This document shows positions 3,580-29,749 of a DNA stretch of 30,042 nucleotides, in pieces (position 1 is the stretch's first letter; every line of letters starts with the position of its first letter). The DNA is from a virus (taxonomy: Duplodnaviria > Heunggongvirae > Uroviricota > Caudoviricetes), in the IMG/VR virus record IMGVR_UViG_2711768048_000007, one strand, 5' to 3'. Both the position numbers and the translations under genes were made by a program. The notes beneath the pieces are model-generated. The model saw nothing but the letters and a program-made list of their open reading frames with translations, did not search any database and was not told the origin of the DNA.

Positions 3580-6500
3580 GCGTCGTATCCCCCCTGATCG
3601 CTGTAGTTACTCCTGGCTTTTGCCTTCAGCCTGCGTTCACGTTCATCAAGCTGGCGGGCCACCTCCCGCGCAATATCCTGCGCACTTTGTCCTGGCTGCA
3701 TCTGAATGATGATCTGCGTCGGTGCCTCAATCCGGTGAACGGGCGGCACAGTGGCTGCACGACTCACCATCGCTTCGCCGCCTTTCGCGGGAAGTGCCAA
3801 AGGATGCAACGGTGGAAGCTCTGCAGGCGCGGCAGCAACGCCCATCATTCCGGCAACAACGGCAGCCAGTGCAGCTGTATTTCTCCGGCTGGTCACATTT
3901 GCCGGGCCGTTAACAATTTCCGGCCCGTTTTCACCGACGATGCCAAACTGCCCGCGCGGGATATAGCCGCCGCTGTCATACATCCCCGCAAAGCCATATC
4001 CCCATGATGGAAAACCACCCGATGGCATCATCACTTTACCGTCTGCATTCACCGTCGCAGGTTGCTGACGCGTCACGCTTTCCGGCAGTTTCGCCTTTGC
4101 AGCTTCTTTACTGACAATGCCGAGTTTATCCAGCAACCAGGAAACACCGGATTTCAGGGAGTCCAGCGGATGCATGACCATATTCAGCCCCTCCGCCAGA
4201 GCCTCCCCGAATCGTCGCCCCATTGCCGCTGCGCTCTGCAGTTCAGCAGAGGTCGACTTAACAGGCGTCAGCAGATCAGTAAACCAACCCCACAACGCCT
4301 GCACTTTGTCGCCAATCCACTGAAACACAGGCTTAAGTGGTTCGAATGCAGCACTGATGGGACCTGCCGACGCTTTGAATCCTTCCACCACGCCACCGAG
4401 AAATGCGGTGATGGGTTGCCAGTATTTCCAGACAACCAGCGCCACACCCGCCAGTGCAGTAACCACAAGACCTATCGGACTGAGCAGAGCACCTAACAGA
4501 CCAGATATGGCATACAGGGCAACGCGCAGCATCGCCAGCGGACCGGATGCCAGTACTCGCAGCACCGCGCCTGCGGCAGACAGTCCACCGCGTAGTGCTG
4601 CCAGTGGATTCATAAACATCACAGCAACAGCACGTAAACCGGATAATCCAGACCGCAACAGTGCAACCGGCACACCTGCTACAGTTTTCAGGACATTCCC
4701 CGTCAGTGATGCCGTGCGGCGCAAAGACGACAACGGCGCAGTAAGTAAACCTGCGGCGTTGCCCGATGAAGCAAGCCCGCGTCGCAGCAGTGCCAGTGGA
4801 GCGCCAGCTAACCAGGACAACGCGCTGCTGGTTCGTGTTACTGCTGCCGTAACGGAAGGTAACGTTTTGATACCCAGCACAGAGAATCCCAGACGGATGA
4901 CTGCCAGCGGCCCCAGCACTGCAGCCAGCGCCACCGCTAAGGTGCCGAGGCCTACGGTAACCGCAGCCACAACAGCCGCTACTTTCATCAGTGTGCCTGT
5001 CAGTTCCGGGTTAGCTTCCACCCAGCGGCGCAACGCTCCCGTGATGCTTTTCACCGTGTACAGAATATCCATCAGCGGCTGGCGCAGCGTTTCGCCCAGG
5101 CTGCTGAAGGTGTTCTGCGCTCCGGTTTTGACCAGCAACCACTGAGCAGAAAGTGAGTCTTTGTTGATGTCGGATTCTTTCTGCATGGAACCGAGCGCAT
5201 CATTGCCCGCTGTCAGTTTTAGCTGGCGCTGCAGTTCCGGAAGGTTGTTTGCCAGTTTCGCCGCGTCATCACCAAACTCTTTACCAAACAACATGGTCAT
5301 GGCAGACAGACGCTTGTCCTGCGGCAGTGCGTTCACCTTCTCCAGCACACGCTGGATAGTTCCCATCGCATCCTTCGTCATCTGCTTTTCAATCACTTCA
5401 GGATTGAGTTTCAGCAGATTCATCCCTTCAAAGAAACTCTTGCTTTGCATGGTGGCAATGGACAATTCACGCACCATCGCGTTTGCTGCACTGGCTGCAA
5501 CCTCCGGCGCAGCGCCCAGTGTCAGAAAGGTGGAACCCAGTGCCGCCGCTTTACGATAATCCAGACGGTCAGCCACACCGCCCAGACGTTGCATCACATC
5601 AATGATGTCCGCCCCTTTCGACATGGCGTTATCATCCAGATAGTTCAGCGCATCGCCGAGCTGTTCAATATTGCGGGTAGGTATTTTGTAGAGCTGGGCG
5701 ATTTTCCCCAGACTTTCTGACAGTTCATCCGCTGGCAGCTCAAAGGCTGTTGCCGCCTTTGCTGCCGTACTGGCGAAGGCCAGCAGGTCACGTTTCTGGT
5801 CTTCCCAGCTGTCGTCAGGGTTTGCGACGTTCATGCGCGCACCACCTTCAACCAGTGCAGCGAAGTCCACCGCACCGTTTTCCATCGGCAACTGTTCGCT
5901 GGCAGCCTTGATGGCATCCTGCATTTCATAAAAACGTGCAGTGCGGTTGCCATTATCGTCACGCAGACCATTGACCTGCTTTGCCACACCTTTCATGGCA
6001 TCTTCCATGCTGGTATAGCTTTTTACTGCCGCCATCACTGGCGCACCCATTGCCAGCCCTGCAGCCGTGGTGGTGGCTCCGGCACCTGCAATACGATCAC
6101 GCACCTCCAGCGAACGGGCATAACTGGCACGCGCTGCATTCATCCTGCGCTGAGCTTCCCCCAGTCGCTTCAGCCGCGCCTCCTGTTTCGAAAGTTCCTG
6201 GTTATAACGTGATGTTTCACGGGCTAAACGGGCAGTTGCTCCCGCATCGTCTTTCGCAGAAATTCCCGCCCGGTACAGTTCAGCACGCACAAGCGCCGTC
6301 TGCTGCTGCAGTTTTTTCTGGCGTTCTTCCAGGCGCTGAACAGCCAGCCGTTGACGGCCCAGAGCAACAACCTGACGTTGCGAAGGCGGCCCCATCGCTC
6401 CCAGTTCCTGACTGAGCAAATTTGCACGCTGGCGGGCATAGTTCAGCCTGTCGCCTAATTTCTGATTTTCTGCCTGCAGCTTTCGGAAGCTGTCCAGACT

Positions 6501-12010: not shown

Positions 12011-12844
12011 TCAGCAATTGGTCAGAGTGTCAGCGGGGGCGTTACCGCCTGTTGCACGCTGGCGGTAGTCCTGGCGGCTGTCTTCATGACTCAGCTTATT
12101 CACCAGTTCGTTAAAGGCGGTCTGCTGTGCCTGCAGGGCAGTCTCCAGCTCAGACAGACGTTCTTCCTGCTCAGACAGGGATTTTTCGGTGCGTGCGCTC
12201 AGGTTTTGCTGCTCAGTGGCGACCAGCTCCACGGCCTTATGCTCATCAGAGAACCGGGCATCGTCGGACTGCTCTTTTTTGGTAAACAGCGCCGTGACAC
12301 GGGCAAACAGGGACGGTTTGTCCTCCTGGATTTCTTCCAGTTCGATCACCGTTTCCTCTGCGGCGGTAAAGAGATTGGCGGGATTCTGCTTGCGGTTTGC
12401 CAGCGGGTTATGGGCTGCACTGGCGCTGAATGTCAGCATTTCCGTACCCAAACTGGCAGGGTCATCAGTGGCAGCCAGGCCGACCAGGTAGGCTTTGCCC
12501 GTATCAGCGAACTTCGGGCTGACTTCCATAGAGGTGAATAATTTCTGGCCTTTTTTCACCAGTTCCACCAGGGACTCCGTTGGCTCAACGTCGGCATACA
12601 GCGCCATCTTGCCTGCCAGCGGGCCTTCCGTGATTTCTTCAGCAAACAGCGCCGTCACCTTGCCGTAACGGTTAAAGGTGCTGTCCGGGAGATAAGACTT
12701 GATGTGCTCAAGGTTAATCAGCGCGGTATACACCGCCGGGTTGTAGCTGGCTGCCATCTGTTCCAGCCATTCACGCTGGATTTCGCGTCCGTCGGTGGTG
12801 GCACCTTCCACCCCGATGCGAAAACGCTTTGCTTTCACTGTCAT
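12011..12844 (-). CDS. O: capsid scaffolding protein O
   Basis: 277 aa, acidic and coiled-coil rich, first gene of the leftward late operon and divergent from P. Confidence 0.85.
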   Translation of the reverse strand: MTVKAKRFRIGVEGATTDGREIQREWLEQMAASYNPAVYTALINLEHIKSYLPDSTFNRYGKVTALFAEEITEGPLAGKMALYADVEPTESLVELVKKGQKLFTSMEVSPKFADTGKAYLVGLAATDDPASLGTEMLTFSASAAHNPLANRKQNPANLFTAAEETVIELEEIQEDKPSLFARVTALFTKKEQSDDARFSDEHKAVELVATEQQNLSARTEKSLSEQEERLSELETALQAQQTAFNELVNKLSHEDSRQDYRQRATGGNAPADTLTNC

Positions 12845-12986
12845 GAGCCGTGCTCCGTTAGAAATAACTTACTGGAGCCTTATGGTTGCGGTGATGGGGG
12901 CAGTGAAACAATGCGCGGTATTTGTACCGACAACCACACAAACCGCAGGCGGGGAAAGCCTTCATTCAAGGCTGTAGGTTTGTGCC
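12845..12986. promoter_or_regulatory. divergent late promoter region between O and P, with an Ogr-type TGT-N12-ACA site
   Basis: TGTaccgacaaccacACA at 12923..12940 fits the TGT-N12-ACA dyad of P2/P4 late promoters, centred about 87 bp upstream of the O start codon. Confidence 0.5.
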
Positions 12987-14753
12987 ATGAACACCACACT
13001 GACACCCGCAGATCTCGATCCCCGTCGGCAGGCCATGCTGCTGTACTTTCAGGGATACCGCGTAGCCCGCATTGCTGAAATGCTGGGCGAGAAAGTTGCA
13101 ACCGTTCACAGCTGGAAGAAACGCGACAAGTGGGGTGACTATGGGCCGCTGGATCAGATGCAGCTCACCACCGCCGCACGTTACTGCCAGCTCATTATGA
13201 AGGAGCACAAAGAAGGGAAAGATTTCAAAGAAATTGACCTGCTGGCGCGCCAGTCGGAGCGCCACGCGCGGATCGGCAAGTTTAACAATGGCGGCAACGA
13301 AGCCGACTTAAACCCTAACGTCGCCAACCGCAACAAAGGCCCGCGCCGTCAGCCGGAAAAGAATGTTTTCACCGATGAACAGATAGAGAAACTGGAAGAA
13401 ATCTTCCATTCCTCCATGTTCAACTACCAGCGCCACTGGTGGGAAGCCGGAAAAACCAACCGCATCCGCAACCTGCTGAAGTCACGCCAGATCGGCGCGA
13501 CCTTTTACTTTGCCCGTGAAGCCCTGATTGACGCCCTGCTTACCGGACGTAACCAGATTTTCCTTTCTGCCAGTAAGGCACAGGCTCACGTCTTTAAGCA
13601 GTACATCATCGACTTCGCCAAAGAAGTCGAGGTGGAGCTGAAAGGCGATCCGATGGTGCTTCCTAACGGGGCCACGCTTTACTTCCTCGGCACCAATGCC
13701 CGCACGGCGCAGAGTTACCACGGCAACCTGTATCTGGATGAATATTTCTGGATACCGAAATTCCAGGAGTTGCGCAAAGTGGCTTCCGGTATGGCTATTC
13801 ACAAGAAATGGCGACAAACCTATTTTTCCACGCCATCCAGCCTGACCCACAGTGCTTATCCGTTCTGGTCCGGTGCGCTGTTCAACCGTGGACGCAACAA
13901 AGCTGACAAGGTGGACATCGACCTGTCCCACAGCAATCTGGCCCCCGGCCTACTGTGCGCAGACGGGCAATACCGCCAGATAGTCACCGTGGAAGATGCG
14001 GTGCGCGGCGGCTGTAACCTGTTCGACCTCGACCAGCTGCGCATGGAGTACAGCCCGGACGAATACCAGAACCTGCTGATGTGCGAGTTCGTGGACGATC
14101 TCGCGTCCGTGTTCCCGCTCAGCGAACTGCAGGCGTGCATGGTGGACAGCTGGGAAGTCTGGACCGACTTTCATGCACTGGCCCTGCGCCCGTTTGGCTG
14201 GCGCGAAGTGTGGATCGGTTATGACCCGGCAAAAGGTACGCAGAACGGCGACAGTGCCGGATGCGTGGTGGTGGCTCCGCCAGCCGTGCCGGGCGGTAAG
14301 TTCCGCATTCTTGAGCGTCACCAGTGGCGCGGGATGGACTTCCGCGCCCAGGCTGACGCCATCAAAAAACTGACCGAACAGTATAACGTGACCTATATCG
14401 GTATCGACTCAACCGGCGTCGGTCACGGGGTTTACGAGAACGTGAAAGCGTTTTTTCCTGCCGTCAGGGAGTTTGTCTATAACCCCAACGTTAAAAACGC
14501 CCTGGTACTCAAGGCCTACGACATTATCAGCCACCGCCGTCTGGAGTTTGACGCCGGGCACACCGACATTGCGCAGTCATTTATGGCAATCCGTCGCGCT
14601 ACCACTGCCAGTGGCAACCGCCCGACCTATGAAGCCAGCCGCAGCGAAGAAGCCAGCCATGCCGATCTGGCCTGGGCAACAATGCACGCACTGTTTAACG
14701 AACCGCTGCAGGGCGAGTCCGCCAATACCAGCAATATTGTGGAGATTTTTTGA
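12987..14753 (+). CDS. P: terminase ATPase (large) subunit P
   Basis: 588 aa, divergent from O; its stop overlaps the Q start (TGATG). Matches P2 gpP in size and position. Confidence 0.9.
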   Translation: MNTTLTPADLDPRRQAMLLYFQGYRVARIAEMLGEKVATVHSWKKRDKWGDYGPLDQMQLTTAARYCQLIMKEHKEGKDFKEIDLLARQSERHARIGKFNNGGNEADLNPNVANRNKGPRRQPEKNVFTDEQIEKLEEIFHSSMFNYQRHWWEAGKTNRIRNLLKSRQIGATFYFAREALIDALLTGRNQIFLSASKAQAHVFKQYIIDFAKEVEVELKGDPMVLPNGATLYFLGTNARTAQSYHGNLYLDEYFWIPKFQELRKVASGMAIHKKWRQTYFSTPSSLTHSAYPFWSGALFNRGRNKADKVDIDLSHSNLAPGLLCADGQYRQIVTVEDAVRGGCNLFDLDQLRMEYSPDEYQNLLMCEFVDDLASVFPLSELQACMVDSWEVWTDFHALALRPFGWREVWIGYDPAKGTQNGDSAGCVVVAPPAVPGGKFRILERHQWRGMDFRAQADAIKKLTEQYNVTYIGIDSTGVGHGVYENVKAFFPAVREFVYNPNVKNALVLKAYDIISHRRLEFDAGHTDIAQSFMAIRRATTASGNRPTYEASRSEEASHADLAWATMHALFNEPLQGESANTSNIVEIF

Positions 14754-15787
14754 TGGGAAAGAGTAAGAAGAACCGCGCTGCGTCGACGAAACAGATCCAG
14801 CATAAAAGCCAGACTTCAGCCGAAGCATTCAGCTTCGGTGATCCCGTTCCTGTTCTGGACCGCCGCGAACTGCTGGACTATGTGGAATGCGTACAGATGG
14901 ATCGTTGGTACGAGCCGCCTGTGAGTTTCGACGGACTGGCGCGAACCTTCCGCGCCGCCGTGCATCACAGCTCACCGATTGCAGTGAAGTGCAACATTCT
15001 GACCAGCACCTACATCCCTCACCCGCTGCTCAGCCAGCAGGCTTTTTCGCGTTTTGTACAGGACTATCTGGTTTTTGGTAACGCCTACCTGGAGAAACGC
15101 ACGAACCGCTTCGGTGAAGTTATCGCCCTTGAGCCTGCACTGGCAAAATACACCCGACGCGGGTTAGACCTTGATACCTACTGGTTTGTGCAATACGGCA
15201 TGACTACGCAGCCGTATCAGTTCACGAAAGGCAACATTTTTCATCTGATGGAACCGGACATCAACCAGGAGATCTACGGCCTGCCTGGTTATCTTTCTGC
15301 CATTCCGTCAGCTCTGCTCAACGAGTCCGCCACGCTGTTCCGCCGCAAGTATTACATTAACGGCAGTCATGCAGGCTTCATCATGTACATGACCGATGCA
15401 GCGCAGAACCAGGAGGATGTGAACAACCTCCGCAATGCGATGAAAAGCGCCAAAGGTCCTGGTAACTTCCGTAACCTGTTTATGTACTCGCCTAACGGTA
15501 AAAAGGACGGGCTTCAGATTATCCCGTTGTCAGAAGTGGCGGCGAAGGATGAGTTCCTGAATATCAAGAACGTGAGCCGGGACGACATGATGGCGGCGCA
15601 TCGTGTGCCGCCACAAATGATGGGGATAATGCCTAATAATGTCGGGGGGTTTGGGGATGTGGAGAAGGCCAGTCGCGTATTTGTACGTAATGAATTAACG
15701 CCCTTGCAAAAAAGGCTACAAGAGCTGAACGACTGGCTGGGCGAAGAAGTGATTAAATTTACGCCCTATATTCTTTCAGAAGAATAA
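14753..15787 (+). CDS. Q: portal protein Q
   Basis: 344 aa from the ATG overlapping the P stop, the same length as P2 gpQ. Confidence 0.9.
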   Translation: MGKSKKNRAASTKQIQHKSQTSAEAFSFGDPVPVLDRRELLDYVECVQMDRWYEPPVSFDGLARTFRAAVHHSSPIAVKCNILTSTYIPHPLLSQQAFSRFVQDYLVFGNAYLEKRTNRFGEVIALEPALAKYTRRGLDLDTYWFVQYGMTTQPYQFTKGNIFHLMEPDINQEIYGLPGYLSAIPSALLNESATLFRRKYYINGSHAGFIMYMTDAAQNQEDVNNLRNAMKSAKGPGNFRNLFMYSPNGKKDGLQIIPLSEVAAKDEFLNIKNVSRDDMMAAHRVPPQMMGIMPNNVGGFGDVEKASRVFVRNELTPLQKRLQELNDWLGEEVIKFTPYILSEE

Positions 15788-15795
15788 TTCCGAAC

Positions 15796-16494
15796 TTATT
15801 TGTTTCTTCTTTGTTCACGCCTTGTCTTGGCTTCGATAAGGCGTTGAGGTTCAGTGTAAAGCCGTTCTAAAAAAAGATAGGTAAAATCTTCAAGATCCTC
15901 AGCAGCAGCTTTATCCAAAATACCTTCATGCGCTCCATCATTTCCGTCATCTTTAACGCATTCAGCTAGTTCCCTTAAAGCTTCAGGCAGTAGATGATTA
16001 TCAAATAACCACTCCATTCTTAACCCTAGGCTTCTCCTTATTTTTTGCGCAGGCCCTTGCTCCCCATCAGGAAGAAGTCCTTTTGTGGCATAATCAAGGC
16101 AAAGCCTAAACATGGTTGCTGCTGCATTATAACAACCTATAGCCAAACATTTCGCCCCTTCCTCATATGCACTATTGATATGCTCAGGTAAGAACTCTGG
16201 TGGCTCCTCTACTGCTAAGTCTGCCGGTGATATAGGCCTAACAACCTCTGCAACTTCCTTTAAGCCGAATATTCCACTTTCCCAATTATAGCCATCTAAA
16301 GTTTTATTTTTCGTTAAAGGTCTGCAAAGAAACATTGTCGTTTTATGACACTCTCGGCAAACACAATAGACCTCGTACTCGTATGTTTTACCCCCGCCCA
16401 ATGCATTGTAAACCCTAGTGCAATTCAGCCCATTAACATCAAACGCTATTTTTTGTGATCCACATCGTGGACAGTCATCCACTAACATAACCAT
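15796..16494 (-). CDS. hypothetical cargo protein: N-terminal zinc ribbon plus C-terminal helical domain
   Basis: 232 aa. Cys pattern CPRCG...C...CxCRECH; C-terminal motif KDDGNDGAHEG. Strong GGGAGGAG Shine-Dalgarno. Lower GC than the phage backbone. Lies between portal and cos, convergent with Q (8-bp gap). Confidence 0.65.
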   Translation of the reverse strand: MVMLVDDCPRCGSQKIAFDVNGLNCTRVYNALGGGKTYEYEVYCVCRECHKTTMFLCRPLTKNKTLDGYNWESGIFGLKEVAEVVRPISPADLAVEEPPEFLPEHINSAYEEGAKCLAIGCYNAAATMFRLCLDYATKGLLPDGEQGPAQKIRRSLGLRMEWLFDNHLLPEALRELAECVKDDGNDGAHEGILDKAAAEDLEDFTYLFLERLYTEPQRLIEAKTRREQRRNK

Positions 16495-16595
16495 GTCAAT
16501 TACTCCTCCCTATGAAAAAAATGAGTTGAAAAATTGAATATTCACGACTTAAAAAGCTAGCCTATTTAACACCATAATTTCATTAATTCAACCAT

Positions 16596-16630
16596 GAGCG
16601 CGCGCTCGTATCCCCGCCACGCCTGCCCGC
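16596..16630. other. cos-like cohesive-end site
   Basis: The minus strand reads GGCGTGGCGGGGATACGAG, matching the first 13 nt of the 186 cohesive end GGCGTGGCGGGGA... as I recall it. A perfect 12-bp palindrome GAGCGCGCGCTC adjoins it (16596..16607). Confidence 0.5.
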
Positions 16631-16783: not shown

Positions 16784-17395
16784 CTACGTAACCACAGTTA
16801 ATGTGTGCATCCTGTCTCGAATTGCATCACACGTCTCATCAAAAAGCTTGGTGATGGTTGTACGATTCAACTCTGCCTCTTTCCAATAATTTTGCCAGTC
16901 AAATTCTGGATCGCCATGCTGAAACGATATTGACTCTGAAAAGCATTCCTTCCGGAAACGGTCCAAGATTATATAAACCTCTGGTGAGATGAACGGTTTG
17001 TTAGACTCAACACTTGTAACAAAAGTATTAAATGCATCGAAAAAAACTTTCAACCTTCTAAATTTTCTCTCTTCAAATGGTTCGTTGGGGTCAAAATGAT
17101 CCAGCGCAGGCCTCAGCTTAAGCACGCTTTCTCTGGTTTCAAACATCGAATTCCAAATGAGACTATATGCTGATAACTCCTTATCAAAATACGCTTTCGT
17201 TACATAAACAGAATTGTCTAACTTAGCCTTTATTCTTTCATTAGTTGCACTCAGTTGTGATTGAAATTCAGCAATATCTTTGTTTAGCCGCGACTTATAT
17301 CTTTCTAAATAAACTTTCCCGATCCAAACAAATATGCCAGATGCAACAAAAGACACCCCACCCAACGAAGCCAGAATTTTAAAGACTAAATCCAT
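16784..17395 (-). CDS. hypothetical cargo protein with an N-terminal transmembrane anchor
   Basis: 203 aa. Hydrophobic helix ILASLGGVSFVASGIFVWIG at the N-terminus, then a soluble domain. Own promoter-like elements (TTGATT, 15 bp, TATAAT at about 17425..17455), a Shine-Dalgarno, and a terminator. AT-rich. Confidence 0.65.
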   Translation of the reverse strand: MDLVFKILASLGGVSFVASGIFVWIGKVYLERYKSRLNKDIAEFQSQLSATNERIKAKLDNSVYVTKAYFDKELSAYSLIWNSMFETRESVLKLRPALDHFDPNEPFEERKFRRLKVFFDAFNTFVTSVESNKPFISPEVYIILDRFRKECFSESISFQHGDPEFDWQNYWKEAELNRTTITKLFDETCDAIRDRMHTLTVVT

Positions 17396-17443: not shown

Positions 17444-17704
17444 TTAATCAAACAGGGAATAATTCGCGTCAACCTCATCACTTCTCTGCTCTACCCTGGT
17501 GACTTCCATCAAAAACTCCAGGCCGTCATATAGCGAAACGGGGAATTCCAGCTCAAGCCAGAAGCAGTCTTCATAGGTGCGGCCCAACCAAAAACCTCCG
17601 CCACACTCCTTTGGGCGTTGAAAGAAGACCCAGCCGCCAGGGGTAAACCGTTCCAGCACCTGGCCCCGATAAATAATCTGGTGATTACTGTCTTTTTTAC
17701 CCAT
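17444..17704 (-). CDS. hypothetical protein, last gene of the SOS-controlled operon
   Basis: About 86 aa from the ATG with a GAGGCG Shine-Dalgarno (MGKKDSNHQ...); the longest ORF uses TTG at 17755. Confidence 0.45.
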   Translation of the reverse strand: MGKKDSNHQIIYRGQVLERFTPGGWVFFQRPKECGGGFWLGRTYEDCFWLELEFPVSLYDGLEFLMEVTRVEQRSDEVDANYSLFD

Positions 17705-17777
17705 GGCTAACGCCTCGCTACTCTCGTTGTTCAACCTTGCTGACGTCAGAATCAAGTTCTTACATCAGGAACGTTCC

Positions 17778-18011
17778 TTAGTGCAGCCAGCTGTCGTCTT
17801 CCCAAACCTGCTGCATAATTTCCATCACCCGCTTTTTGTCTTCATCAAGCTTTAAGCCACTCAGCTCAACGCCGTTTGCCGACCCTTTACGGATGCGGAT
17901 AGCTGTCTTGGGATAGATGGGTTGCAGGTTGCGGTAAAGCTCGGACTCCAGAGCGTCCAGGGTAGACTGGCTAATCTTCTGCTCTTTATCGATCATTATT
18001 TCAATGCGCAT
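17778..18011 (-). CDS. dinI: DinI-family protein
   Basis: MRIEIMIDKEQKISQSTLDALESELYRNLQPIYP...VWEDDSWLH resembles E. coli DinI (MRIEVTIAK...ALAGELSRRIQ...TWESADDW). GAGGTGA Shine-Dalgarno. Confidence 0.7.
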   Translation of the reverse strand: MRIEIMIDKEQKISQSTLDALESELYRNLQPIYPKTAIRIRKGSANGVELSGLKLDEDKKRVMEIMQQVWEDDSWLH

Positions 18012-18021
18012 AAAAGTCACC

Positions 18022-18210
18022 TCAGCTGATGACATCCATTGAGCGGTTGTATTCGTGGCTTCTGATTTTTGCCATGAGTTCATCAGTCAATTCAGAAACC
18101 CACTGCAGAGCCAGCCCCTTCTCTTCATCACTACACTCACTAGCCGCTACAAGCTTAAGAAAAAAATCAATGCGCTGGAGCTTCAAAGACTCCAAAAAAT
18201 AGTCCTGCAT
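18022..18210 (-). CDS. small hypothetical protein, first gene after the LexA-box promoter (possible Tum-like antirepressor)
   Basis: 62 aa from the ATG with an AGGAGG Shine-Dalgarno (MQDYFLESLK...). Its stop overlaps the dinI-like Shine-Dalgarno. Confidence 0.5.
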   Translation of the reverse strand: MQDYFLESLKLQRIDFFLKLVAASECSDEEKGLALQWVSELTDELMAKIRSHEYNRSMDVIS

Positions 18211-18238
18211 CTTTCCTCCTATGACACCACAAGCAATA

Positions 18239-18271
18239 CTGTATACATAAACACTGTTTATATTTACAGTA
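18239..18271 (-). promoter_or_regulatory. LexA (SOS) operator(s) overlapping a promoter
   Basis: aCTGTttatatttACAGta at 18253..18271 is a perfect CTGT-N8-ACAG box. An overlapping imperfect box CTGTatacataaACAC lies at 18239..18254. Both are 30-60 bp upstream of the 18210 start codon. Confidence 0.7.
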
Positions 18272-18363
18272 TATAATAATCCTACTGATGTAAAACGTTT
18301 TTTTACGTTCATCAGCCTGATATGCCTGGTATTATTAAGAGCACGAATTGTTAACCCGCGTAA

Positions 18364-20778
18364 TTAATACAGGTTCCGCCACTTATCATCTTCCTGCAAA
18401 CGCTGGTTCCGATAGAAGATACGCAGGCCTGCTCCTGACGGAATACTGCCACCGCGAAGGAGCAAATCGACCTCTTTCTCGCTGCCATCAAATCCTCTGG
18501 ACTTCAGTTCATAGACGAGCTGCTGACGCTGATGCTCTGTAATTCGCTGTTTGTAGTCTTTACGCCGTTTCGGTTTAACCAGGCGTAATCTTGCTGCCAG
18601 TTCCCGGCGCTCTTTTTTGCTCATATTGTGCAGGTAATCGTGCAATTCCTTGTCATCCATGCAGGTAATATCAGTTCTGGTATCCCCATCTGCTGATTTA
18701 TCTTTCTCCTGTTGGTTCAAATTTTCAGCAAGGGGACAGTTATTGCCACGAGTCCAAGGGGCGCAAGCGCCCTGGTCGGCTGCCGCCTCCTGAACGTCAA
18801 CGGCCTTACGAACCATTTTCCACTTCACTGCATGAGTGCAGATCTTGCCCTCTGCAATGGGTGACCAGATGCCATAAATACGAATGCCGTGATCGCCATA
18901 GGCGGTCGGCTCTTCGTTGATTTCATAAGCGGTTCTGATCAGGTGATATTTGCGGGGAACCAGTACGCCGCCCTGCTTCATGATGTAGGTGGCAAAACAA
19001 CCAGCATCAGCAGCAGCCAGGATTGCATCAAGGCGCGGGTTATCCAGTACCGGCGCACCTGCTTTTTTGTCCCCCTGTTGCCTTGCCGCCTGACCAGCCA
19101 GCAATCGCAGTTCACGGTAAGCCTGACGCCCCGGAATGCCAAAGAAGCGGAATTGCTGAACACGATGCAAAGACGCCCAGGCATTAACGTATTCAGCATT
19201 ATCACGCAGGGATTTCCCCGTTTCCTTGCTGATCTCGCCAGCCAGACCACGCCCGTCAATGTTCTTACTGATGTATTTCGCGATGTAGCTTGTTGGCGTA
19301 CCTTTGCGCGGGTTAATCAACTCAGACTTAAAGCGCGGCCCAGTGTTATTGCCCAGCTCCTCGCGGTCTTCACGGATGGCAAACTTACGCAGTAATGCAG
19401 TGATGGCGCGGCGGTCTTTTTTGCGCATAAAACACAACAGGTGCCAGTGAACTGTACCGTCATGATGCGGCTCAGCCACCCGCACGCCATACCAGCGCAA
19501 TCCGGCTTTGTGCATCGCCTTACGAAATGCAGCAAACATGCCGACCAGATAATCACTACTTTGTCTTACCGTCGCATTTGTCCAGGTTGGGTTGGGCCTG
19601 CCGTTATTTAGCGTGGAATGGAAACGTGACGGACAGGTGATGGTGTAGAAAACGGCGCAGTCACCGCGCATTTCCGCGATAAGCTCCAGACCTTTAACAC
19701 AGGCCATCATCTCATTGCGGCGATGCGCAGGGTTGCTGCTGCTGGCGTTTACCACATCCTCCATGTCCAGCGTGTCGCCGTCTTCGTTCACCAGTTCATG
19801 AGAACGGAAAAACTCCAGCGACTTACGGCGCTGCTCACGTTTATGCATCACGGCTTCATAGCTGACATAAGGAGATGCTTTTTTGCTAACCAGGCAGACA
19901 GCGCGCAACTGCTCTTCCCGCCATTCGCAACGCATCTTCCATAATTTCCGATACCACCAGTCGGCGCACAACATACGCGCCAGCGAACCCGGAATGAGTT
20001 CATAGGGCACGGGTTTACGGCGGTTTCTTTTCCGACGGAGTTGCTCAAACGCAGGCGGGATAACATCCAGACGCAGGGTTTCCGCTGCCACCTTTTCCCA
20101 TGTCTTGCGGATTTCTTCTGGCTTAACGTCATCGGTGGCATACAAATCACCACAAGCTGCATCAAGGCACATGCTCATATGCGCAGCGACAAGGGTAGAC
20201 AGGCGCTTCACCTGATCCTGACTCATTTCAGGCAGGATCAGCAGGCCGTCCAGCCCTTCATGGCTTGCCATAAAGCGAAAAGAAGCGGATAGCTGACTGT
20301 CGCGTACATGCTCCAGTCGTTCCAGACATGGCTTAATCGTCTCACGCAAATAGCGGGAATAAGCCTTTGGCCTGCCCAGGCTGCTGAAGTATTCAATACG
20401 TTGCATCAGCGGATTGCTGATATGGGAAGGCTGGGCGTTAACGTCCGCCAGTATGACCATGTCCGGATTAAAGCGCTGCTGCTCATGCGCCAGCTTTGCC
20501 CGGCTAATGAGCTTATCCTGCTCCATTTCGCGTTGGACAGGATCACGGGATTCATTAAAGAAATAACGCTCCCAGACCTGATCACTCAGTGCCTCGCGGC
20601 GCAGTTGTTCCTGCTCGTTATCGGCAGCGTACAGAGTGATCAGGTTTGAAAGCGCAGAAACCGGCGCAACTTCCGCCGGGTCCAGATAAGGGTTAATCGC
20701 CTTTTTCGGGCTGTTCCATGAGAATGCTGCGGCGGCCTCGTTAAAGCCGCTGCAGTTGTTCATATCAGCATGGCTCAT
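18364..20778 (-). CDS. A: replication initiation protein A (rolling-circle endonuclease)
   Basis: 804 aa, the largest early gene, at the P2/186 gpA position; its ATG overlaps the dam stop. Confidence 0.85.
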
Positions 20779-23806: not shown

Positions 23807-24457
23807 TTGTCAAATGGAGAGTTCATCTTGAAGATTAATACAGGTGCAAATACGGGAGGGAGAGAGACCATCAAAAGGCTGATGACAGCCTATGGTTTCA
23901 ACACTCAGATAGCGTTGGTTGAACACCTCGAAGCATCAAAAAGCACCATGGCAAACAGGATGTTACGTGATAGCTTCCCTGCTGACTGGGTTATTCAATG
24001 TGCCCTTGAAACAGGTATTTCTCTTCTTTGGCTGACAACGGGCCAAGGGGAAATGTATCCTCAAACAGAAGAAAAAAATAAGTTCAAAAACGAGAGTTCA
24101 CCTACAGTTCGCCCCCTTTCAAAGATAGTTATCCCATCAGTAAGGCAGGTAACCATTGAGAACGGAACTCTCGAAGAGATGGGGGATGTTTTCCTTGATC
24201 AGACTTTGATACCCGGAAAAGCCGAATATTGTTTGTACGTCAAAGCTAACGACGGCAATTACATTGTTGATACATCAACAAAACAGCTTAGTAACGGAAT
24301 TTGGCTCATAGACATCGACGGTATGAAAAACATCGTCAAAATTGCGCGCATACCTGGAAACAAAATAGTAGTTAACCAAGATGACACGTCATTTGAATGT
24401 TCTGTAGATGATGTGGAAGTCGTAGGACGTGCAGTCAAAGTAATCAAGAACCTCTAA
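23807..24457 (+). CDS. cI: CI-type immunity repressor (start uncertain)
   Basis: HTH region AYGFNTQIALVEHLEASKSTMANRM plus a C-terminal domain. The longest ORF starts with TTG at 23807; a TTG at 23828 has a GGAGAG Shine-Dalgarno and is a likely true start. Confidence 0.75.
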   Translation: MSNGEFILKINTGANTGGRETIKRLMTAYGFNTQIALVEHLEASKSTMANRMLRDSFPADWVIQCALETGISLLWLTTGQGEMYPQTEEKNKFKNESSPTVRPLSKIVIPSVRQVTIENGTLEEMGDVFLDQTLIPGKAEYCLYVKANDGNYIVDTSTKQLSNGIWLIDIDGMKNIVKIARIPGNKIVVNQDDTSFECSVDDVEVVGRAVKVIKNL

Positions 24458-24460
24458 CTT

Positions 24461-25477
24461 ATGACCATAAGAAAACAGCCGAACGGAAAATGGTTGTGTG
24501 AGTGCTATCCCAATGGACGCAATGGTAAGCGCGTGCGTAAGCAATTTGCTACCAAAGGCGAAGCCATTGCTTTTGAAAGCTTCACAATGGAAGAAGTGAA
24601 TAAAAAACCGTGGTTGGGTGAAAAGGATGATCGGCGACGCCTATCAGAATTAATTGAGCTTTGGTATTCCCTGTATGGTCAGACACTCGCAGACCCCAAG
24701 CGCCTCATGGCGAAACTTAGAATTATCTGTAATGGTCTAGGCGACCCCATCGCCTCAGAACTGACAGCCGGTGACTTTACGAAATACCGCGAAGCACGGT
24801 TAAAAGGTGACGTTCGTAACGAAGACGGCACACTAATGTCGCCAGTAAAACCACGCACGGTGAATCTTGAGCAACGTAACCTATCATCGGTTTTCGGCAC
24901 ATTGAAAAAACTAGGCCACTGGTCAGCACCAAATCCTCTCGCCGGGCTGCCAACATTTAAAATCGCTGAGGGGGAACTGGCGTTCCTGACCTCGGAAGAA
25001 ATTAAACGTCTGCTAGATGCCTGCGCTGATTCTCAAAACCCCAGTCTGCTTTTGATTGCAAAAATATGCCTGGCCACCGGCGCACGCTGGAGTGAAGCCG
25101 AAAACCTGCAGGGCCATCAGTTATCTAAATACCGCATCACTTATACCAAGACGAAGGGTAAGAAAAACCGCACCGTGCCGATATCTCAAGATCTGTATGA
25201 CGAACTCCCCAAGAACAGAGGGAAGCTATTCACCCCGTGCAGAAAAGCCTTTGAACGAGCAGTAAAGCGAGCTGGCATCGAGCTGCCAGAGGGCCAATGC
25301 ACTCACGTGCTACGTCATACATTCGCCAGCCATTTTATGATGAATGGCGGAAACATACTGGTTCTGCGCGATATTCTGGGCCATGCCGATATAAAAATGA
25401 CGATGATCTATTCTCATTTTTCACCAGAACACTTAGAAGATGCAGTAACTAAGAATCCTTTAAATTATATTGAGTGA
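24461..25477 (+). CDS. int: tyrosine integrase (P2 Int family)
   Basis: 338 aa; C-terminal catalytic region HVLRHTFASHFMMNGGNILVLRDILGHADIKMTMIYSHF with the catalytic Tyr. Lies next to attR. Confidence 0.9.
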   Translation: MTIRKQPNGKWLCECYPNGRNGKRVRKQFATKGEAIAFESFTMEEVNKKPWLGEKDDRRRLSELIELWYSLYGQTLADPKRLMAKLRIICNGLGDPIASELTAGDFTKYREARLKGDVRNEDGTLMSPVKPRTVNLEQRNLSSVFGTLKKLGHWSAPNPLAGLPTFKIAEGELAFLTSEEIKRLLDACADSQNPSLLLIAKICLATGARWSEAENLQGHQLSKYRITYTKTKGKKNRTVPISQDLYDELPKNRGKLFTPCRKAFERAVKRAGIELPEGQCTHVLRHTFASHFMMNGGNILVLRDILGHADIKMTMIYSHFSPEHLEDAVTKNPLNYIE

Positions 25478-25482
25478 AAATC

Positions 25483-26544
25483 ATGTTAAGTGATACTTGT
25501 TATACAGTGATTTATATTGCAGCAATCGTTTTATTAGTATTTATTACAATAGTAAAAAAATGGTACATGCTTGATAAAAGAAATTTATTTCGTCAGAAAT
25601 TATTTTGGATTTCAGTTTTAACACCTTTATTTTCCTTTATCTATTTTGGTTTTTTCACATGGTGGGGAAAAGAACCAGTACTCTCCGCACATGGCTATTC
25701 AAGATTTTACGAAATAAGCAAATTCCCTCTACTATTGCTAGCTAGTGCAGTTCCTTTGGCTTCGATCGTCAACAATATACATCGCACTATACAAACCGAA
25801 GCTCAGATCAACACCGCTGAAACGAAAAATGCAGTCGATAGATATTTAGCACATGAGAAAAACTTTATTGAGAAAACAAAGGAAATATTCGCCTACAATC
25901 TTCAAAGCGCGAGAGACTCAGATGGAAACCTCATTAAATTCAATGGCGAACCAAATATCACTTTGTTTACAGCAGATGAAATTAAAATTTCCAACCCATA
26001 TCTTTTATATACAAAAATATACAACAAATCAACTATAGAGACCACATCTAACTTCACCGCAAACCCTGATTTTTTAGTGCAATTAAAGGAGTACTTAAAC
26101 ACAATTAATAATACTCTGTCGGTTCAACACTCTATAGATGAATATAATCCATTAAGTTACATGATTCGACTTAACACTTTGTCATATAATACAGCCTCGT
26201 TATTAGACCTGATATGTACATCCCCCATATCTCATGTATACTGTTTGATAAAATATGATGGGTATCAATTAAAAACATTTACACTTGAAGAACAAGTATT
26301 CGCCGATATTTTAGAAATATCATATCTTCTATCAAGAAAACTAATTCGTTTGATATATAATGAAGATATACCACATTACGACAACATTTATAATTACTTA
26401 TATGTTGGTAAGTTGAGGTTTAAATTCAGAAAACACGCCAATTCTTTACAAGCATTTTCTTCGCAGGAATGGGCTGATTACGTTTCTGAAGCACTAACTC
26501 TAGTTCCTAACGAAGTTGGCGGCACTTTGGCGGCAGCGCATTAA
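25483..26544 (+). CDS. hypothetical polytopic membrane protein, very AT-rich cargo
   Basis: Three predicted helices (YTVIYIAAIVLLVFITIV, WISVLTPLFSFIYFGFFTWW, LLLLASAVPLASIVNNI) then an Asn/Tyr/Ile-rich domain of about 250 aa. GC content estimated by eye at about 30 percent, against roughly 50 percent for the backbone. Overlaps the int stop; a GTG at 25474 is an alternative start. Confidence 0.65.
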   Translation: MLSDTCYTVIYIAAIVLLVFITIVKKWYMLDKRNLFRQKLFWISVLTPLFSFIYFGFFTWWGKEPVLSAHGYSRFYEISKFPLLLLASAVPLASIVNNIHRTIQTEAQINTAETKNAVDRYLAHEKNFIEKTKEIFAYNLQSARDSDGNLIKFNGEPNITLFTADEIKISNPYLLYTKIYNKSTIETTSNFTANPDFLVQLKEYLNTINNTLSVQHSIDEYNPLSYMIRLNTLSYNTASLLDLICTSPISHVYCLIKYDGYQLKTFTLEEQVFADILEISYLLSRKLIRLIYNEDIPHYDNIYNYLYVGKLRFKFRKHANSLQAFSSQEWADYVSEALTLVPNEVGGTLAAAH

Positions 26545-26833: not shown

Positions 26834-29749
26834 TCAGAACGACCAGTTCACACCAGCTACCGCGTTCCACGGGGATTCCACACCGGCACTATGGCTATAC
26901 CCCACCCCAAGATGCCCGCTTAACGTACTGCTGAATGAGGCTTTAATACCTGCCTGGTATATTCCACGTCTGCCCGACAAATAATTGACGAAATTACCGT
27001 CACTATTCACTTTCACCCGGTTATCATCGACAAATTCTTTGCGCACAGCCGCCTTCAGCCACGGCTCAACTTCCATACCGTTCCCCAGACGCATGTTGTA
27101 ACTCAGCGTTGCGCCCAGTTCACGATATATACTGCGGGTATCGACTGATTTCGATTTCATGCCATTGGATAAATGATATTCGGGGTTATCAGCGGTGAAC
27201 CCCGTTAACGATGCATACGGCGTCAGGTTCCAGTTACCATCGGTAAATCGCATCCCGGTTTCAATGTGACCGCCCAGCCCGTTGCTGTGGTAACTGCCAT
27301 TGGCGGCTCCACCGCTGCTCATTTTACCTGCTACGTTACTTTTAAAACGGTTCAGCTTCACGACACCGTCCAGATAGAAACCACTTTCATGTTCCCAACT
27401 GGCATAGCCGCCCAGAGAATAACTGCCCACACTGCCATGTCCTCCGCGATCAAAACCGATATGTGAATGGGAATAGCCCATAAAAGCGCCTAGCGTGGTA
27501 ATTCCTTCAGGAATATCATTACGGCTGTCGATCCCCACTGTCATTCCGGTCAGCGTCTGCTCAAACCCGGCACCCGCATCGGTGGTGACATTATTACGGG
27601 TGTTATACGTCGCCCCCCAGACATTATTGTTGTGTGGACTCGCTTTCATTATGTTCAACCGCTCGCGAATACTGTTTAGCTCAGCATCAAATACCAACGG
27701 TAATGTTGCTGCCATATTGAGTACGGCTGCCGTAGAAGGCGTAATGCGTTTCTCCGGAACGGGTGTCGGCGTTGGATCGGGAGTAGGGTCTGGTTTTGGA
27801 TTTGGGTCTGGCTTTGGATCGGGTTTTGGGTCTGGCTTTGGATTTGGGATGGGGTCCGGGTTGGGTTTGACATCATTGGTCAGGTTCCAGTTGCTGTTGC
27901 CGTCACTTTTCAGGACATACTCATAGGTCCCAAGATCAACGAAACCGCCGGTATTGCCCAGCGTAAACGAAGCATCCCCTCCCCCTGTTTTCACCAGCGT
28001 CATCGCGTCGTCAGACTGTGGGCTGACGCCGGTATCCTGAACAAAGATTTTAAAATTACCAGTGGCGTTGTTGTTGACGACCAGTTGATCGCCCCGGGAG
28101 CCTGCAACGTTGGTATGCAGGTAGAAATTACCGCTACCGGAAAGTTCATTGGTTGTCAGCGTATTGTAGATACCGTTAGTTGTGGCAGGCGCTGCTGTTT
28201 GTGCTGACAAATAAACATCACCGTCGTTGAGTAGCAAACTGTTTACTCTATATTCGCAGTTGCTGGTACCTGCACAGGAATTATTGCTGTTAAGCCAGAC
28301 ACTGCCCCGGCTGGCAGCCGTCAGGTCGGCAAGCGTGGTATCGACGCCATTTCCCAGAGTCAATGTCGCGCTATCGGTAATCCGGACCGCCCCTTCGAGT
28401 TTAACTGGCGTAACATTATCCCGTGGCGTCATTAACGACAGGCTTCCTGTCGCGCCACTGACCGATGCATCCGCCAGCGTACCTGCGTAGACGATTGCCG
28501 TACCGCCAGCGACCTGGAGATCTTCTGCCCGGGCCAGAGCCTGAAACTCATCTTTTGACCGCCCAAGGGTATATTGCCCGCCAGAGTTAACCTTTGTGGC
28601 GGAGTCCTGACCCAGGTTTTGCATTGCCCCACCCTTGCCAACCGTGGAGTCGCGAGCTTCGGTACCTGCTAATACCAATAAATTACCGCCATTTTCCAGC
28701 AACATATTGGTCGCTAAATTGCCGGAAATGGAAAAAGTACCGTACTGGTGAGTACCGCTGATTTCAATACCGTTAGCCGTGCTCGTCTGGAGAGCGGCAC
28801 CGCTGTTCTGGACGATATCTGTCGCTTTGCCATTATCGTTGACTGTCAGCGTACCGCCTTCATTGATCTTTGTTTTTATTGCCTCTCCGTTAGCTGAAAC
28901 TGTTTGTATTCCGCCGTCGTTAATTGTTGTCTCATTCGCCACACCCTCGACAATTTGTTCACCGCCGGTGAGCGTCGTGCCTGTCGCAGTGGCTTTTGTT
29001 TTGACGATCTCCCGTCCGCCCATATTGACCTGTGTTTTGTCAGAAGAGGTGTCTGACTCCACGGTTAACACGCCGCCATTTGCCAGCAGGATATTGTTCG
29101 CCGCACCCTGCTCGATGCTGAACGCGACGCCATCCGCGCGTGTTCCTGTGACCCGCGTCGCCCTGGTGGTTGCAACCAAAGCGCCCTGGCTACTCTGCTG
29201 TATCCCCGTTGCGCTGCCTTTCTCCCGCACATCGAGTGTGCCGCCGTCATTAAGCACCGAGTTTTCAGCCAGACCGCCCTCATTAACTACCTGTGAACCC
29301 CCATTAATAATGGAACCTTCCGCTGTCCCGTTTGCCATAATTTGTTGTAGGCCAGAGACGATATCGGTATTGATTGCCTTACCATAATTCTGAACGGTTT
29401 GCGTGCCACCATTGATGTGTGTTTTCTCTGTTGACCCACCATCAACAATTTGTTCACCACTTTCGATATTTGCTTCAGTGGCTAAACCATATACCGTTTG
29501 CTTGCCACCTTTGATATTTGCTTTATCAGAAGTGGCACTGGCATATATTGTTTGGGTGCCAGCACTATTGAGTACAGTGCCAACATCTTTTCCATAAACA
29601 TCCATTTTGCCGTTGGCATTAATAATCGTGTCAACTGCGCGGGAACCAGTGACGACTGTTAATGAGCCAGCGTTTTCCAGCACTACATTTTTAGCTTCTG
29701 AATTCCTGATGTAGAAAGCATCACCATAACTGTTGGTTCCTTCGATAAG
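26834..29749 (-). CDS. autotransporter adhesin (YpjA-like), N-terminal part cut off by IS2 (probable pseudogene fragment)
   Basis: Repetitive Gly/Thr/Asn-rich passenger region, Pro-rich PNPDPIPNPKPDPKPDP linker, C-terminal beta-barrel ending ...AGVNWSF. No signal peptide; the 5' end runs into the IS2 terminal repeat. Confidence 0.75.
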   Translation of the reverse strand, partial: LIEGTNSYGDAFYIRNSEAKNVVLENAGSLTVVTGSRAVDTIINANGKMDVYGKDVGTVLNSAGTQTIYASATSDKANIKGGKQTVYGLATEANIESGEQIVDGGSTEKTHINGGTQTVQNYGKAINTDIVSGLQQIMANGTAEGSIINGGSQVVNEGGLAENSVLNDGGTLDVREKGSATGIQQSSQGALVATTRATRVTGTRADGVAFSIEQGAANNILLANGGVLTVESDTSSDKTQVNMGGREIVKTKATATGTTLTGGEQIVEGVANETTINDGGIQTVSANGEAIKTKINEGGTLTVNDNGKATDIVQNSGAALQTSTANGIEISGTHQYGTFSISGNLATNMLLENGGNLLVLAGTEARDSTVGKGGAMQNLGQDSATKVNSGGQYTLGRSKDEFQALARAEDLQVAGGTAIVYAGTLADASVSGATGSLSLMTPRDNVTPVKLEGAVRITDSATLTLGNGVDTTLADLTAASRGSVWLNSNNSCAGTSNCEYRVNSLLLNDGDVYLSAQTAAPATTNGIYNTLTTNELSGSGNFYLHTNVAGSRGDQLVVNNNATGNFKIFVQDTGVSPQSDDAMTLVKTGGGDASFTLGNTGGFVDLGTYEYVLKSDGNSNWNLTNDVKPNPDPIPNPKPDPKPDPKPDPNPKPDPTPDPTPTPVPEKRITPSTAAVLNMAATLPLVFDAELNSIRERLNIMKASPHNNNVWGATYNTRNNVTTDAGAGFEQTLTGMTVGIDSRNDIPEGITTLGAFMGYSHSHIGFDRGGHGSVGSYSLGGYASWEHESGFYLDGVVKLNRFKSNVAGKMSSGGAANGSYHSNGLGGHIETGMRFTDGNWNLTPYASLTGFTADNPEYHLSNGMKSKSVDTRSIYRELGATLSYNMRLGNGMEVEPWLKAAVRKEFVDDNRVKVNSDGNFVNYLSGRRGIYQAGIKASFSSTLSGHLGVGYSHSAGVESPWNAVAGVNWSF
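27757..27870. repeat. tandem short-unit repeats encoding the Pro-rich autotransporter linker
   Basis: Reiterated GGKTYTGGNTTTGGR units (for example GGGTCTGGCTTTGGATCGGGTTTTGGGTCTGGCTTTGGATTTGGG). Confidence 0.6.

Follow-up and report, generated by a model that had tools for sequence, protein, structure and literature searches.

Genomic location and organisation of the gene

The 30,042-nucleotide stretch of viral DNA analysed here (IMG/VR record IMGVR_UViG_2711768048_000007, hereafter the window) is a chromosome segment comprising a P2-like prophage and its host flank. Between the portal gene Q and the cohesive end site cos it carries, on the minus strand, a coding sequence of 232 amino acids (15796..16494, ATG start, as given in the list of open reading frames (ORFs)), which is examined here as a candidate anti-phage defence gene. 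E. coli LF82 harbours a P2-like prophage known as Escherichia phage Cartapus (Peduoviridae, genus Elveevirus), with which the region of this gene shares 99.9% identity, and some 40 further E. coli chromosomes match it to the same degree. The product of the gene is identical to Cartapus gp01 (WP_000245245; a 100% match in tblastn), named in RefSeq as a 'DUF4145 domain-containing protein', and the gene is referred to below as the DUF4145 gene.

The DUF4145 gene is convergent with Q (14753..15787, plus strand), the stop codons of the two lying 8 bp apart. The cos core, a 19-nt homologue of the P2 cohesive end (GGCGTGGCGGGGATACGAG; 16605..16623, minus strand), was located on the other side of the gene by a blastn search of the window with the P2 cos junction as query, and cos is marked at positions 1-59 in the Cartapus record. 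In the P2 reference, cosL occupies positions 1-19, the terminator tQ positions 160-181 and the Q stop position 187, and the Q-cos interval is gene-free. The initial annotation had described a gene inserted between Q and cos where P2 has essentially no coding space, convergent with Q, lower in GC than the backbone and preceded by a strong ribosome-binding site, and this description is borne out in each of its parts. The GC content of the gene is 0.418 (0.318 at third codon positions, GC3) as against 0.518 in Q (GC3 0.627) and 0.565 in the terminase gene P, and the Shine-Dalgarno sequence read upstream of it, GGGAGGAG (16503..16510, minus strand), is strong and placed 8 nt before the ATG.

A candidate promoter of its own (TTGAAT, a 16-nt spacer and TTAAAT; 16564..16591, minus strand) was recognised by eye between cos and the gene, and a scan with promoter consensus sequences found no minus-strand promoter upstream of the gene. 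No terminator was found by scanning between Q and the DUF4145 gene, and an inverted repeat inside the 3' end of the gene (15817-15844) has no T tract.

Homologues of the protein are numerous: 603 were retrieved at E<=1e-3 from a collection of protein clusters at 90% identity, and a single-sequence search of a 50%-identity library returned 927 representatives, including 137 at E<=1e-30. With few exceptions they have a length of about 230 residues and are matched over the whole of it. Taken with the low ratios of non-synonymous to synonymous substitution (dN/dS) and the transcription of the gene in LF82, both described below, these homologues show that the ORF is a real gene and not a chance reading frame.

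Domain architecture and conservation

Four segments, all encoded on the minus strand, can be distinguished in the protein. An N-terminal Cys4 zinc ribbon with conserved CxxC knuckles (residues 1-57; 16324..16494; ligands C8, C11, C46 and C49), presumed to be the sensor domain, is followed by a variable linker with the lowest conservation in the protein (residues 58-95; 16210..16323) and by a DUF4145/HEPN domain (residues 96-215; 15850..16209) that is matched by Pfam PF13643, by the PADLOC family PD-T7-4 and by PDB entry 9Y9C. Within this domain lies the presumed catalytic motif K181-D-D-G-N-D-G-A-H189 (15928..15954). The protein ends in a basic tail rich in Arg and Lys (residues 216-232; 15799..15849), in which R225, R226 and R229 are conserved in the alignment of close relatives; this tail may serve in RNA binding or oligomer contacts. 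Anantharaman et al. (2013, PMC3710099) placed DUF4145 within the superfamily of HEPN RNases, listed fusions to zinc ribbons and scored the HEPN motif as 'mostly conserved (80%)' for this family.

The Pfam search gave a single match, PF13643 (DUF4145), at 30.3 bits against a gathering cut-off of 23.1 (E 4.5e-7), residues 114-203 being aligned to profile positions 4-82 of 88. The sole PADLOC match of the protein was PD-T7-4 (26.1 bits, E 1.2e-6), and 44 of 45 family members matched PD-T7-4 and no other family (best E 3.6e-11). The search of NCBIfam with the 232-residue protein returned no match. Using a broad family profile built from 88 sequences, a weak match of the zinc ribbon to the TFIIS-type zinc ribbon of RPA12 was obtained against PDB (E 0.92). 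The profile searches proposed in the initial annotation thus returned both DUF4145 and PD-T7-4, and its description of an N-terminal Cys4 zinc ribbon joined to a DUF4145-type domain holds. The DGNDGAH motif to which it had drawn attention is real, nearly invariant and aligned with the HEPN catalytic motif, as detailed in the next section.

C8, C11, C46 and C49 and the segment G184-N-D-G-A-H189 are invariant in 45 close relatives. Among 121 cluster representatives of the wider family each zinc-ribbon Cys is kept in 107-117, H189 in 117, N185 in 113 and R130 in 120, and position 181 is occupied by Arg in 67, Lys in 43 and Gln in five. H189 is also retained in all 130 unique copies. The entropy in the close family is 2.22 bits over residues 1-95 as against 0.96 bits in the HEPN part. 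Residues 21-40 form the most variable block of the zinc ribbon, and in the linker the frequency of the commonest residue falls to 0.36 in the close family and 0.25 among the representatives. Pairwise dN/dS, for which dS was unsaturated in only 30 sequence pairs, is 0.18 for the N-terminal part and 0.054 for the HEPN part; purifying selection therefore acts on both parts and is weaker in the N-terminal one. It was also considered whether the sensor is under positive selection, but this has no domain-level support, the dN/dS there being 0.18. A second metal site formed by C116, C121, C132 and C179, which are invariant in the close family, was likewise considered and rejected, because the four Cys are replaced independently by Ala, Ser, Thr or Val among the 121 representatives, with patterns (CCAC, CCCS, CCCA etc.) such as are seen for buried packing residues.

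PHROGs assigned the protein over its full length to phrog_1305 (E 9.5e-53), a family labelled 'DNA binding protein', and a zinc-ribbon DNA-binding regulator is accordingly one of the roles that have to be considered. That label is an annotation rather than an assayed function, no DNA-binding Pfam family matches the 232-residue protein, and the HEPN motif is better conserved than the zinc ribbon, so that such a regulator is highly improbable.

Distant phage homologues with an R-x7-H motif were found in Shigella phage POCJ13 (gp20), Burkholderia phage phi644-2 and Gordonia phage Meyran (gp1), and those of POCJ13 and Meyran occupy accessory positions in unrelated temperate phages. In POCJ13, a lambdoid phage of the Stx type, the homologue (4040-4714 of its locus) has a Ren-like exclusion gene and a gene for a RelE toxin as neighbours, and gene 1 of the actinophage Meyran (94-783 of its locus) is the first gene beside the cohesive ends and the terminase genes.

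Relationship to RAZR

PD-T7-4 was described as a single-gene 'Zn finger-HEPN' defence obtained by functional selection (Vassallo et al. 2022, PMC9519451) and was later renamed RAZR. The zinc ribbon of RAZR binds large rings of phage proteins, namely the portals of T7, T3 and SECphi18 and an Erf-like recombinase, and a RAZR 24-mer assembles around these rings, which switches on the DUF4145/HEPN RNase; RNA is then cleaved non-specifically and the infection is aborted (Zhang et al., Nature 2026, PMC13017515). The catalytic residues R146 and H154 are both required for defence, R146A abolishing it; RAZR by itself is non-toxic, and its zinc-finger domain is the part in which homologues differ most (PMC13017515).

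Searches of PDB sequences with the single protein and with the close-family profile found nothing relevant. With the broad profile, a match at E 4.3e-6 was obtained to 9y9c_OA, one of the 24 chains of a 219-residue 'DUF4145 domain-containing protein'. This chain is RAZR, since its AGN 68-70, R29, Y31, R35, T41, E43 and D179-D180 sit exactly where the paper numbers them. The profile pairs the family motif C-[IV]-[RK]-x-D-G-N-D-G-A-H with I-C-R146-I-V-G-N-Q-A-V-H154 of RAZR, thereby placing H189 opposite H154 and K181 opposite R146, and hhalign agrees with this pairing. In the hhalign comparison of the close family with the HEPN segment of RAZR, 104 columns were aligned at 25% identity (E 4e-4, probability 35%). 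The zinc-ribbon knuckles align weakly with C16/C19 and C49/C52 of RAZR, as a stretch of 3 bits in the profile search.

The protein resembles RAZR (reference from E. coli UMB1727; PDB 9Y9C and 9Y6U), with which it is compared here from sequence alone, in being a single-gene product of about 220-230 residues in which a Cys4 zinc ribbon at the N-terminus precedes a C-terminal DUF4145/HEPN domain. The catalytic His is aligned, the x7 spacing to the basic residue is equal, the N-terminal domain is the most variable part in both, and both are associated with mobile elements. They differ in genomic location, the RAZR gene overlapping an integrase gene while the DUF4145 gene occupies the Q-cos interval of P2-like phages. 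On these comparisons the 232-residue protein appears to be a distant homologue of RAZR in the effector domain and not its orthologue.

Expression in the LF82 lysogen

The transcriptome of LF82 (PMC9928086, S1 Table; values as log2(fpkm+5), fpkm being fragments per kilobase per million), in which the DUF4145 gene is listed as LF82_788 / CARTA_1, was used to examine its expression in a lysogen. CARTA_1 stands at 4.65-4.71 in overnight cultures in LB, at 7.0-7.6 in the B1/B6 conditions and at 9.2-9.6 in macrophages at 1 h and 6 h. The portal, terminase and gpA genes remain at 2.3-3.1 in every condition, and the CI repressor gene ranges from 5.0 to 9.3 across conditions (PMC9928086). The DUF4145 gene is thus transcribed in the lysogen independently of the lytic genes, as would be expected of a lysogenic-conversion or defence gene, because it is raised while portal, terminase and gpA stay low. 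The same data set includes two other groups of genes on the gpA side of cos: LF82_789, which corresponds to the 203-residue ORF described further below and shows a similar pattern of expression to CARTA_1, was called a moron and reaches log2 10.5 in macrophages, and CARTA_44-46, the genes at 17444-18312 of the window, reach up to about log2 11 in macrophages with gpA at background (PMC9928086).

The Q-cos interval as a cargo slot

The gpA-gpQ interval of P2-like phages has been published as a defence hotspot (Rousset 2022, PMC9122126; Vassallo 2022, PMC9519451; and a 2026 survey). Table S5A of Rousset 2022 (PMC9122126) holds the exact arrangement of the window, for example in an ECOR assembly, in a row that reads WP_001154434, DinI WP_001217566, WP_000516592, WP_000366628 and the DUF4145 protein WP_000245245; the arrangement was catalogued there and lies outside the systems assayed in that study. 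A literature search for WP_000245245 found no mention in a main text, the accession appearing only in this supplementary table. In the window the gene lies between A (18364-20778, minus strand) and Q, and the content of this region varies among relatives, as expected of a member of the hotspot. The initial annotation had named the cos-proximal interval of P2-like phages as a hotspot for anti-phage genes and had proposed that its variability be examined across prophages; the published hotspot agrees with the former, and the survey that follows confirms the latter.

A query composed of the Q end and the cos flank matched 1289 E. coli genomes, and in the sampled prophages the cos core was found beyond a cargo gene convergent with Q. 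Apart from the DUF4145 gene, four types of cargo were identified in the Q-cos interval of other E. coli P2-like prophages: a SieB-family gene, an ORF of 97 residues, a gene for an Old-like ATP-dependent nuclease (PADLOC Old, 71.7 bits) and a gene for a KAP-type NTPase (PADLOC PDC-S49), whose annotated 5' end overlaps the cos core. Since different cargo genes fill it in the sampled prophages, the Q-cos interval is a variable cargo slot of its own inside the hotspot. The DUF4145 gene itself is present in about 42 of 5426 complete E. coli genomes, and at least 80% of the region is covered in only 42 of the 1271 E. coli genomes that match any part of it. In E. coli SCEC020026 the gene for the KAP-type P-loop NTPase (PDC-S49; 1043-2887 of its locus) overlaps the cos core, which is found at locus position 2768. 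The annotated start may have been set too far upstream; failing that, cos would be internal to the 5' part of the gene.

The genes old and tin of P2 offer a close comparison as regards position. The DUF4145 gene resembles them as a cos-proximal, low-GC accessory gene of a P2-like phage that is expressed in the lysogen (PMC9122126; Odegrip et al. 2006), and differs in that old and tin encode unrelated proteins and stand on the gpA side of cos, the DUF4145 gene being on the Q side. A different zinc-ribbon/DUF4145 protein, WP_032331032 (246 residues), is encoded on the gpA side of cos in a P2-like prophage of E. coli SW070919 (NZ_CM129861.1; 3965-4705 of its locus); it has a Lys seven residues ahead of the His (K-F-L-G-N-A-G-S-H), and the Q-cos slot of that prophage is filled by a SieB-family gene. 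Several zinc-ribbon/HEPN subfamilies therefore circulate in the hotspot.

Distribution and portal adjacency

The distribution of the family was examined in a scan of one genome per species, with loci seeded on the motifs DGNDGAH and TMFRLCLD, and in IMG/VR; as the searches were motif-seeded and IMG/VR is rich in enterobacterial prophages, the proportions of loci given here are indicative only. The 80 species-level loci come from Enterobacterales, Pseudomonas, Burkholderiales, Vibrio, Alphaproteobacteria, Nitrospirae, Omnitrophota, Verrucomicrobiota, Planctomycetes and Campylobacterota. P2 marker genes are found at only six of them, the other 74 being outside phages. Sampled neighbours include integrase, resolvase and transposase genes and genes for a PIN_12 protein, an AAA_21 ATPase and a second DUF4145 protein. 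When the ORFs within 3 kb were clustered, no neighbour family outside the P2 backbone occurred at more than three of the 80 loci, and hence no partner gene was found.

The lack of a partner bears on the possibility that the protein is the toxin of an addiction module stabilising the prophage, or a weakened HEPN binder or decoy, directed for instance against RAZR-like systems of the host. HEPN domains are common among the toxins of toxin-antitoxin systems (PMC3710099), and the replacement of the catalytic Arg by Lys would suit a weakened protein. On the other side, no adjacent antitoxin or MNT gene is conserved across the 80 loci, and the toxin-antitoxin reading was rejected on that ground; RAZR alone is non-toxic, as noted above; and the near invariance of H189, N185, G184 and D183, together with the interchange of Arg and Lys within the family, suggests that the active site is retained. 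A toxin or decoy is therefore quite improbable.

Among viral contigs of IMG/VR, 71 encode a relative of the protein, and a P2-type portal gene is present in 50 of these. In 48 of the 50, Q and the gene for the relative are on opposite strands and at most 200 bp apart (usually 15-48 bp), and this adjacency persists down to 49% identity of the cargo protein and 62% identity of the portal. Pairwise identities are correlated (Spearman coefficients of 0.74 for cargo and Q, 0.78 for cargo and P and 0.87 for Q and P), the cargo diverging faster. Some pairs of prophages have portals at least 95% identical and cargo alleles only 51% identical, so that alleles are at times exchanged. In copies not linked to a portal, position 181 is Lys in 52, Arg in 27, Gln in six and His in two.

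A fixed position next to the portal gene, together with divergence that follows that of the backbone (the coefficients of 0.74-0.78 given above), is what would be expected of a factor of the phage itself, such as an RNase or RNA binder acting in the Cartapus cycle in host shut-off, transcript processing or a packaging-linked step. Several observations stand against such a factor and render it improbable. The gene is absent from P2 and from most P2-like prophages, as the figures of 42 and 1271 E. coli genomes show, and the great majority of its species-level loci lie outside phages. Its transcription in the lysogen takes place when the late genes are off, and it is oriented antisense to the late P-Q operon; its GC3 (0.32 vs 0.63 in Q) marks it as foreign; and near-identical portals can be accompanied by strongly divergent alleles. 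The initial annotation had set a cargo role against a core phage function at a conserved position, and of the latter only one part stands: the position is fixed within a sub-lineage, but the function is not core, because P2 and most of its relatives lack the gene and most species-level copies occur outside phages.

Portal adjacency might alternatively have a functional cause within a defence role. The sensor could be tuned to portal rings, and the adjacency would then represent the linkage of a portal-sensing RNase with a 'self' portal allele that does not trigger it. The locus could in that event discriminate self from non-self portals, in competition among P2-like phages or against satellites of the P4 type; convergent late transcription through Q would silence the gene in the phage's own lytic cycle, and the Lys-for-Arg site, fixed in the portal-linked copies, would be part of the variant. 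This proposal, drawn from the comparative analysis, is given a low probability.

A putative prophage-borne defence of the RAZR type

The explanation that we favour, and regard as somewhat probable by analogy with RAZR, is that the DUF4145 gene constitutes by itself an anti-phage defence of the RAZR/PD-T7-4 type that is carried by the prophage, with the zinc ribbon as sensor and the DUF4145/HEPN domain as RNase effector. The protein would be made from its own promoter in the lysogen and be kept inactive until a protein of a superinfecting phage, by analogy with RAZR a large ring formed by a portal or recombinase, binds to the zinc ribbon. Such binding would rearrange HEPN dimers or oligomers into an active state, and non-specific cutting of RNA would then stop translation and abort the infection. 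Speaking for defence are the domain architecture, the HEPN homology with its catalytic His, the absence of a partner gene, the variable sensor joined to a conserved effector, the residence in a defence hotspot and the expression in the lysogen. From the likeness to RAZR we infer RNase activity with Lys in the position of Arg, the kind of trigger, the state of oligomerisation and the protective phenotype.

Other DUF4145/HEPN effectors are known from defence settings and offer a further comparison. BxaP, Ishtar1 and the DUF4145 domains fused to restriction-modification proteins share such an effector with the present protein and differ from it in their partner domains, which are HEAT-like, a beta-rich C-terminal domain and restriction endonuclease/helicase domains, none of them having an N-terminal zinc ribbon. 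DS-38, a validated defence of E. coli with a HEPN domain and a zinc finger that is distinct from PD-T7-4 (10.1101/2025.01.08.631726), may be identical or homologous to the 232-residue protein. As described, it shows the pattern found here, its HEPN domain aligning with that of PD-T7-4 and its zinc finger being distinct; the strain set from which it came is mostly ECOR (10.1101/2025.01.08.631726), and WP_000245245 is found in an ECOR assembly.

Several results weigh against a defence of the RAZR type. The similarity to RAZR is weak, the score with the PADLOC model being 26 bits and the identity of the HEPN domains 25%, and the zinc-ribbon parts could be aligned over 12 columns only, which is not significant. 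The equivalent of H154 is kept, but the catalytic R146 of RAZR is replaced by Lys181, and all 43 unique portal-linked copies have K181 with H189 in place of the canonical Arg. The single-sequence AlphaFold2 model is unusable (predicted local distance difference test score, pLDDT, 39.5; predicted template modelling score, pTM, 0.26), and its helical C-terminal half, which is consistent with a HEPN fold, is not evidence for one. Expression of CARTA_1 in LB is under the 5-fold cut-off set for morons (25.6 vs 34.4 normalised counts; PMC9928086). Finally, the literature search found no phenotype for the 232-residue protein or its close family.

As the similarity in the zinc ribbon is not significant, the trigger and the mode of assembly may differ from those of RAZR. 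The main rival is a HEPN RNase that also acts in defence and is activated in another way, by a nucleic acid, a non-ring protein or a state of the host, and forms no 24-mer around a ring. The spacing between the zinc-binding knuckles is 34 residues as against 29 in RAZR, and the N-terminal part is about 20 residues longer, as is the linker (residues 58-95, and 66-79 in RAZR; PMC13017515); the authors of DefensePredictor reached the same conclusion for DS-38 in relation to PD-T7-4 (10.1101/2025.01.08.631726). Against this it can be said that architecture, size and single-gene nature are the same as in RAZR, that in PADLOC some family members are aligned across both domains (residues 7-214 with profile positions 15-182), and that RAZR homologues, too, differ most in the zinc-finger domain. 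We thus consider a different mode of activation unlikely, and the roles in the phage cycle, in addiction or as a decoy, and in regulation less likely still.

Other genes of the prophage and its flank

The remaining landmarks of the window are the scaffold gene O, the terminase gene P and the portal gene Q (12011-15787), the CI repressor and integrase genes (23807-25477) and the host autotransporter gene ypjA (26834-29776). Across cos from the DUF4145 gene, on the gpA side, lies an ORF of 203 residues (16784-17395, minus strand; GC 0.38) with an N-terminal hydrophobic helix, which has a full-length match to phrog_26391, matches no Pfam or PADLOC family and is mislabelled 'valyl-tRNA synthetase' in some genomes. 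It is present beside the DUF4145 gene in only some of otherwise identical viral contigs and is therefore independent cargo, possibly a second defence or exclusion gene. Between this ORF and gene A, positions 17444-18312 (minus strand) encode a phrog_2100 protein, a DinI homologue (Pfam DinI, E 3.8e-24) and a phrog_698 protein.

Two further regions have features of accessory DNA. An ORF of 356 residues (25474-26544, plus strand; GC about 0.31-0.34), located between the integrase gene and ypjA, has no Pfam match; the int-att slot in which it stands carries a gene annotated as 'anti-phage dCTP deaminase' in related E. coli prophages, and the ORF is a candidate cargo or defence gene. In the tail-fibre region the GC content falls to 0.40-0.43 at positions 501-2000, which by coordinate mapping correspond to a part of Cartapus where the annotation shows tail-fibre and assembly genes in opposed orientation together with a gene for a Gin-like DNA invertase; this is probably an invertible host-range segment.

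Significance

Earlier publications cover the domain family, the hotspot and the mechanism of the closest relative, and the gene itself has been annotated and catalogued. New are the correspondence of individual residues that ties this subfamily to RAZR, the Lys fixed at the position of the catalytic Arg, the recognition of the Q-cos interval as a cargo slot and the persistent proximity of the gene to that of the portal. As most of the framework is published, the gain is incremental unless the proposed linkage with the portal holds. The Q side of cos emerges as a cargo slot in its own right, and one family has held it across a wide divergence of the phage backbone. If active, the protein would represent a second, deeply divergent branch of the zinc-ribbon/HEPN (RAZR-type) immune proteins, distinguished by another sensor domain and by Lys in place of the catalytic Arg, and would offer a natural comparison for studying how trigger specificity is set by the sensor domain and how far the HEPN site tolerates substitution. 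The gene is also expressed in the lysogen of the Crohn's-associated strain LF82 and is strongly transcribed in macrophages. It could thus affect the phage susceptibility of this strain, which is relevant to phage therapy against adherent-invasive E. coli.

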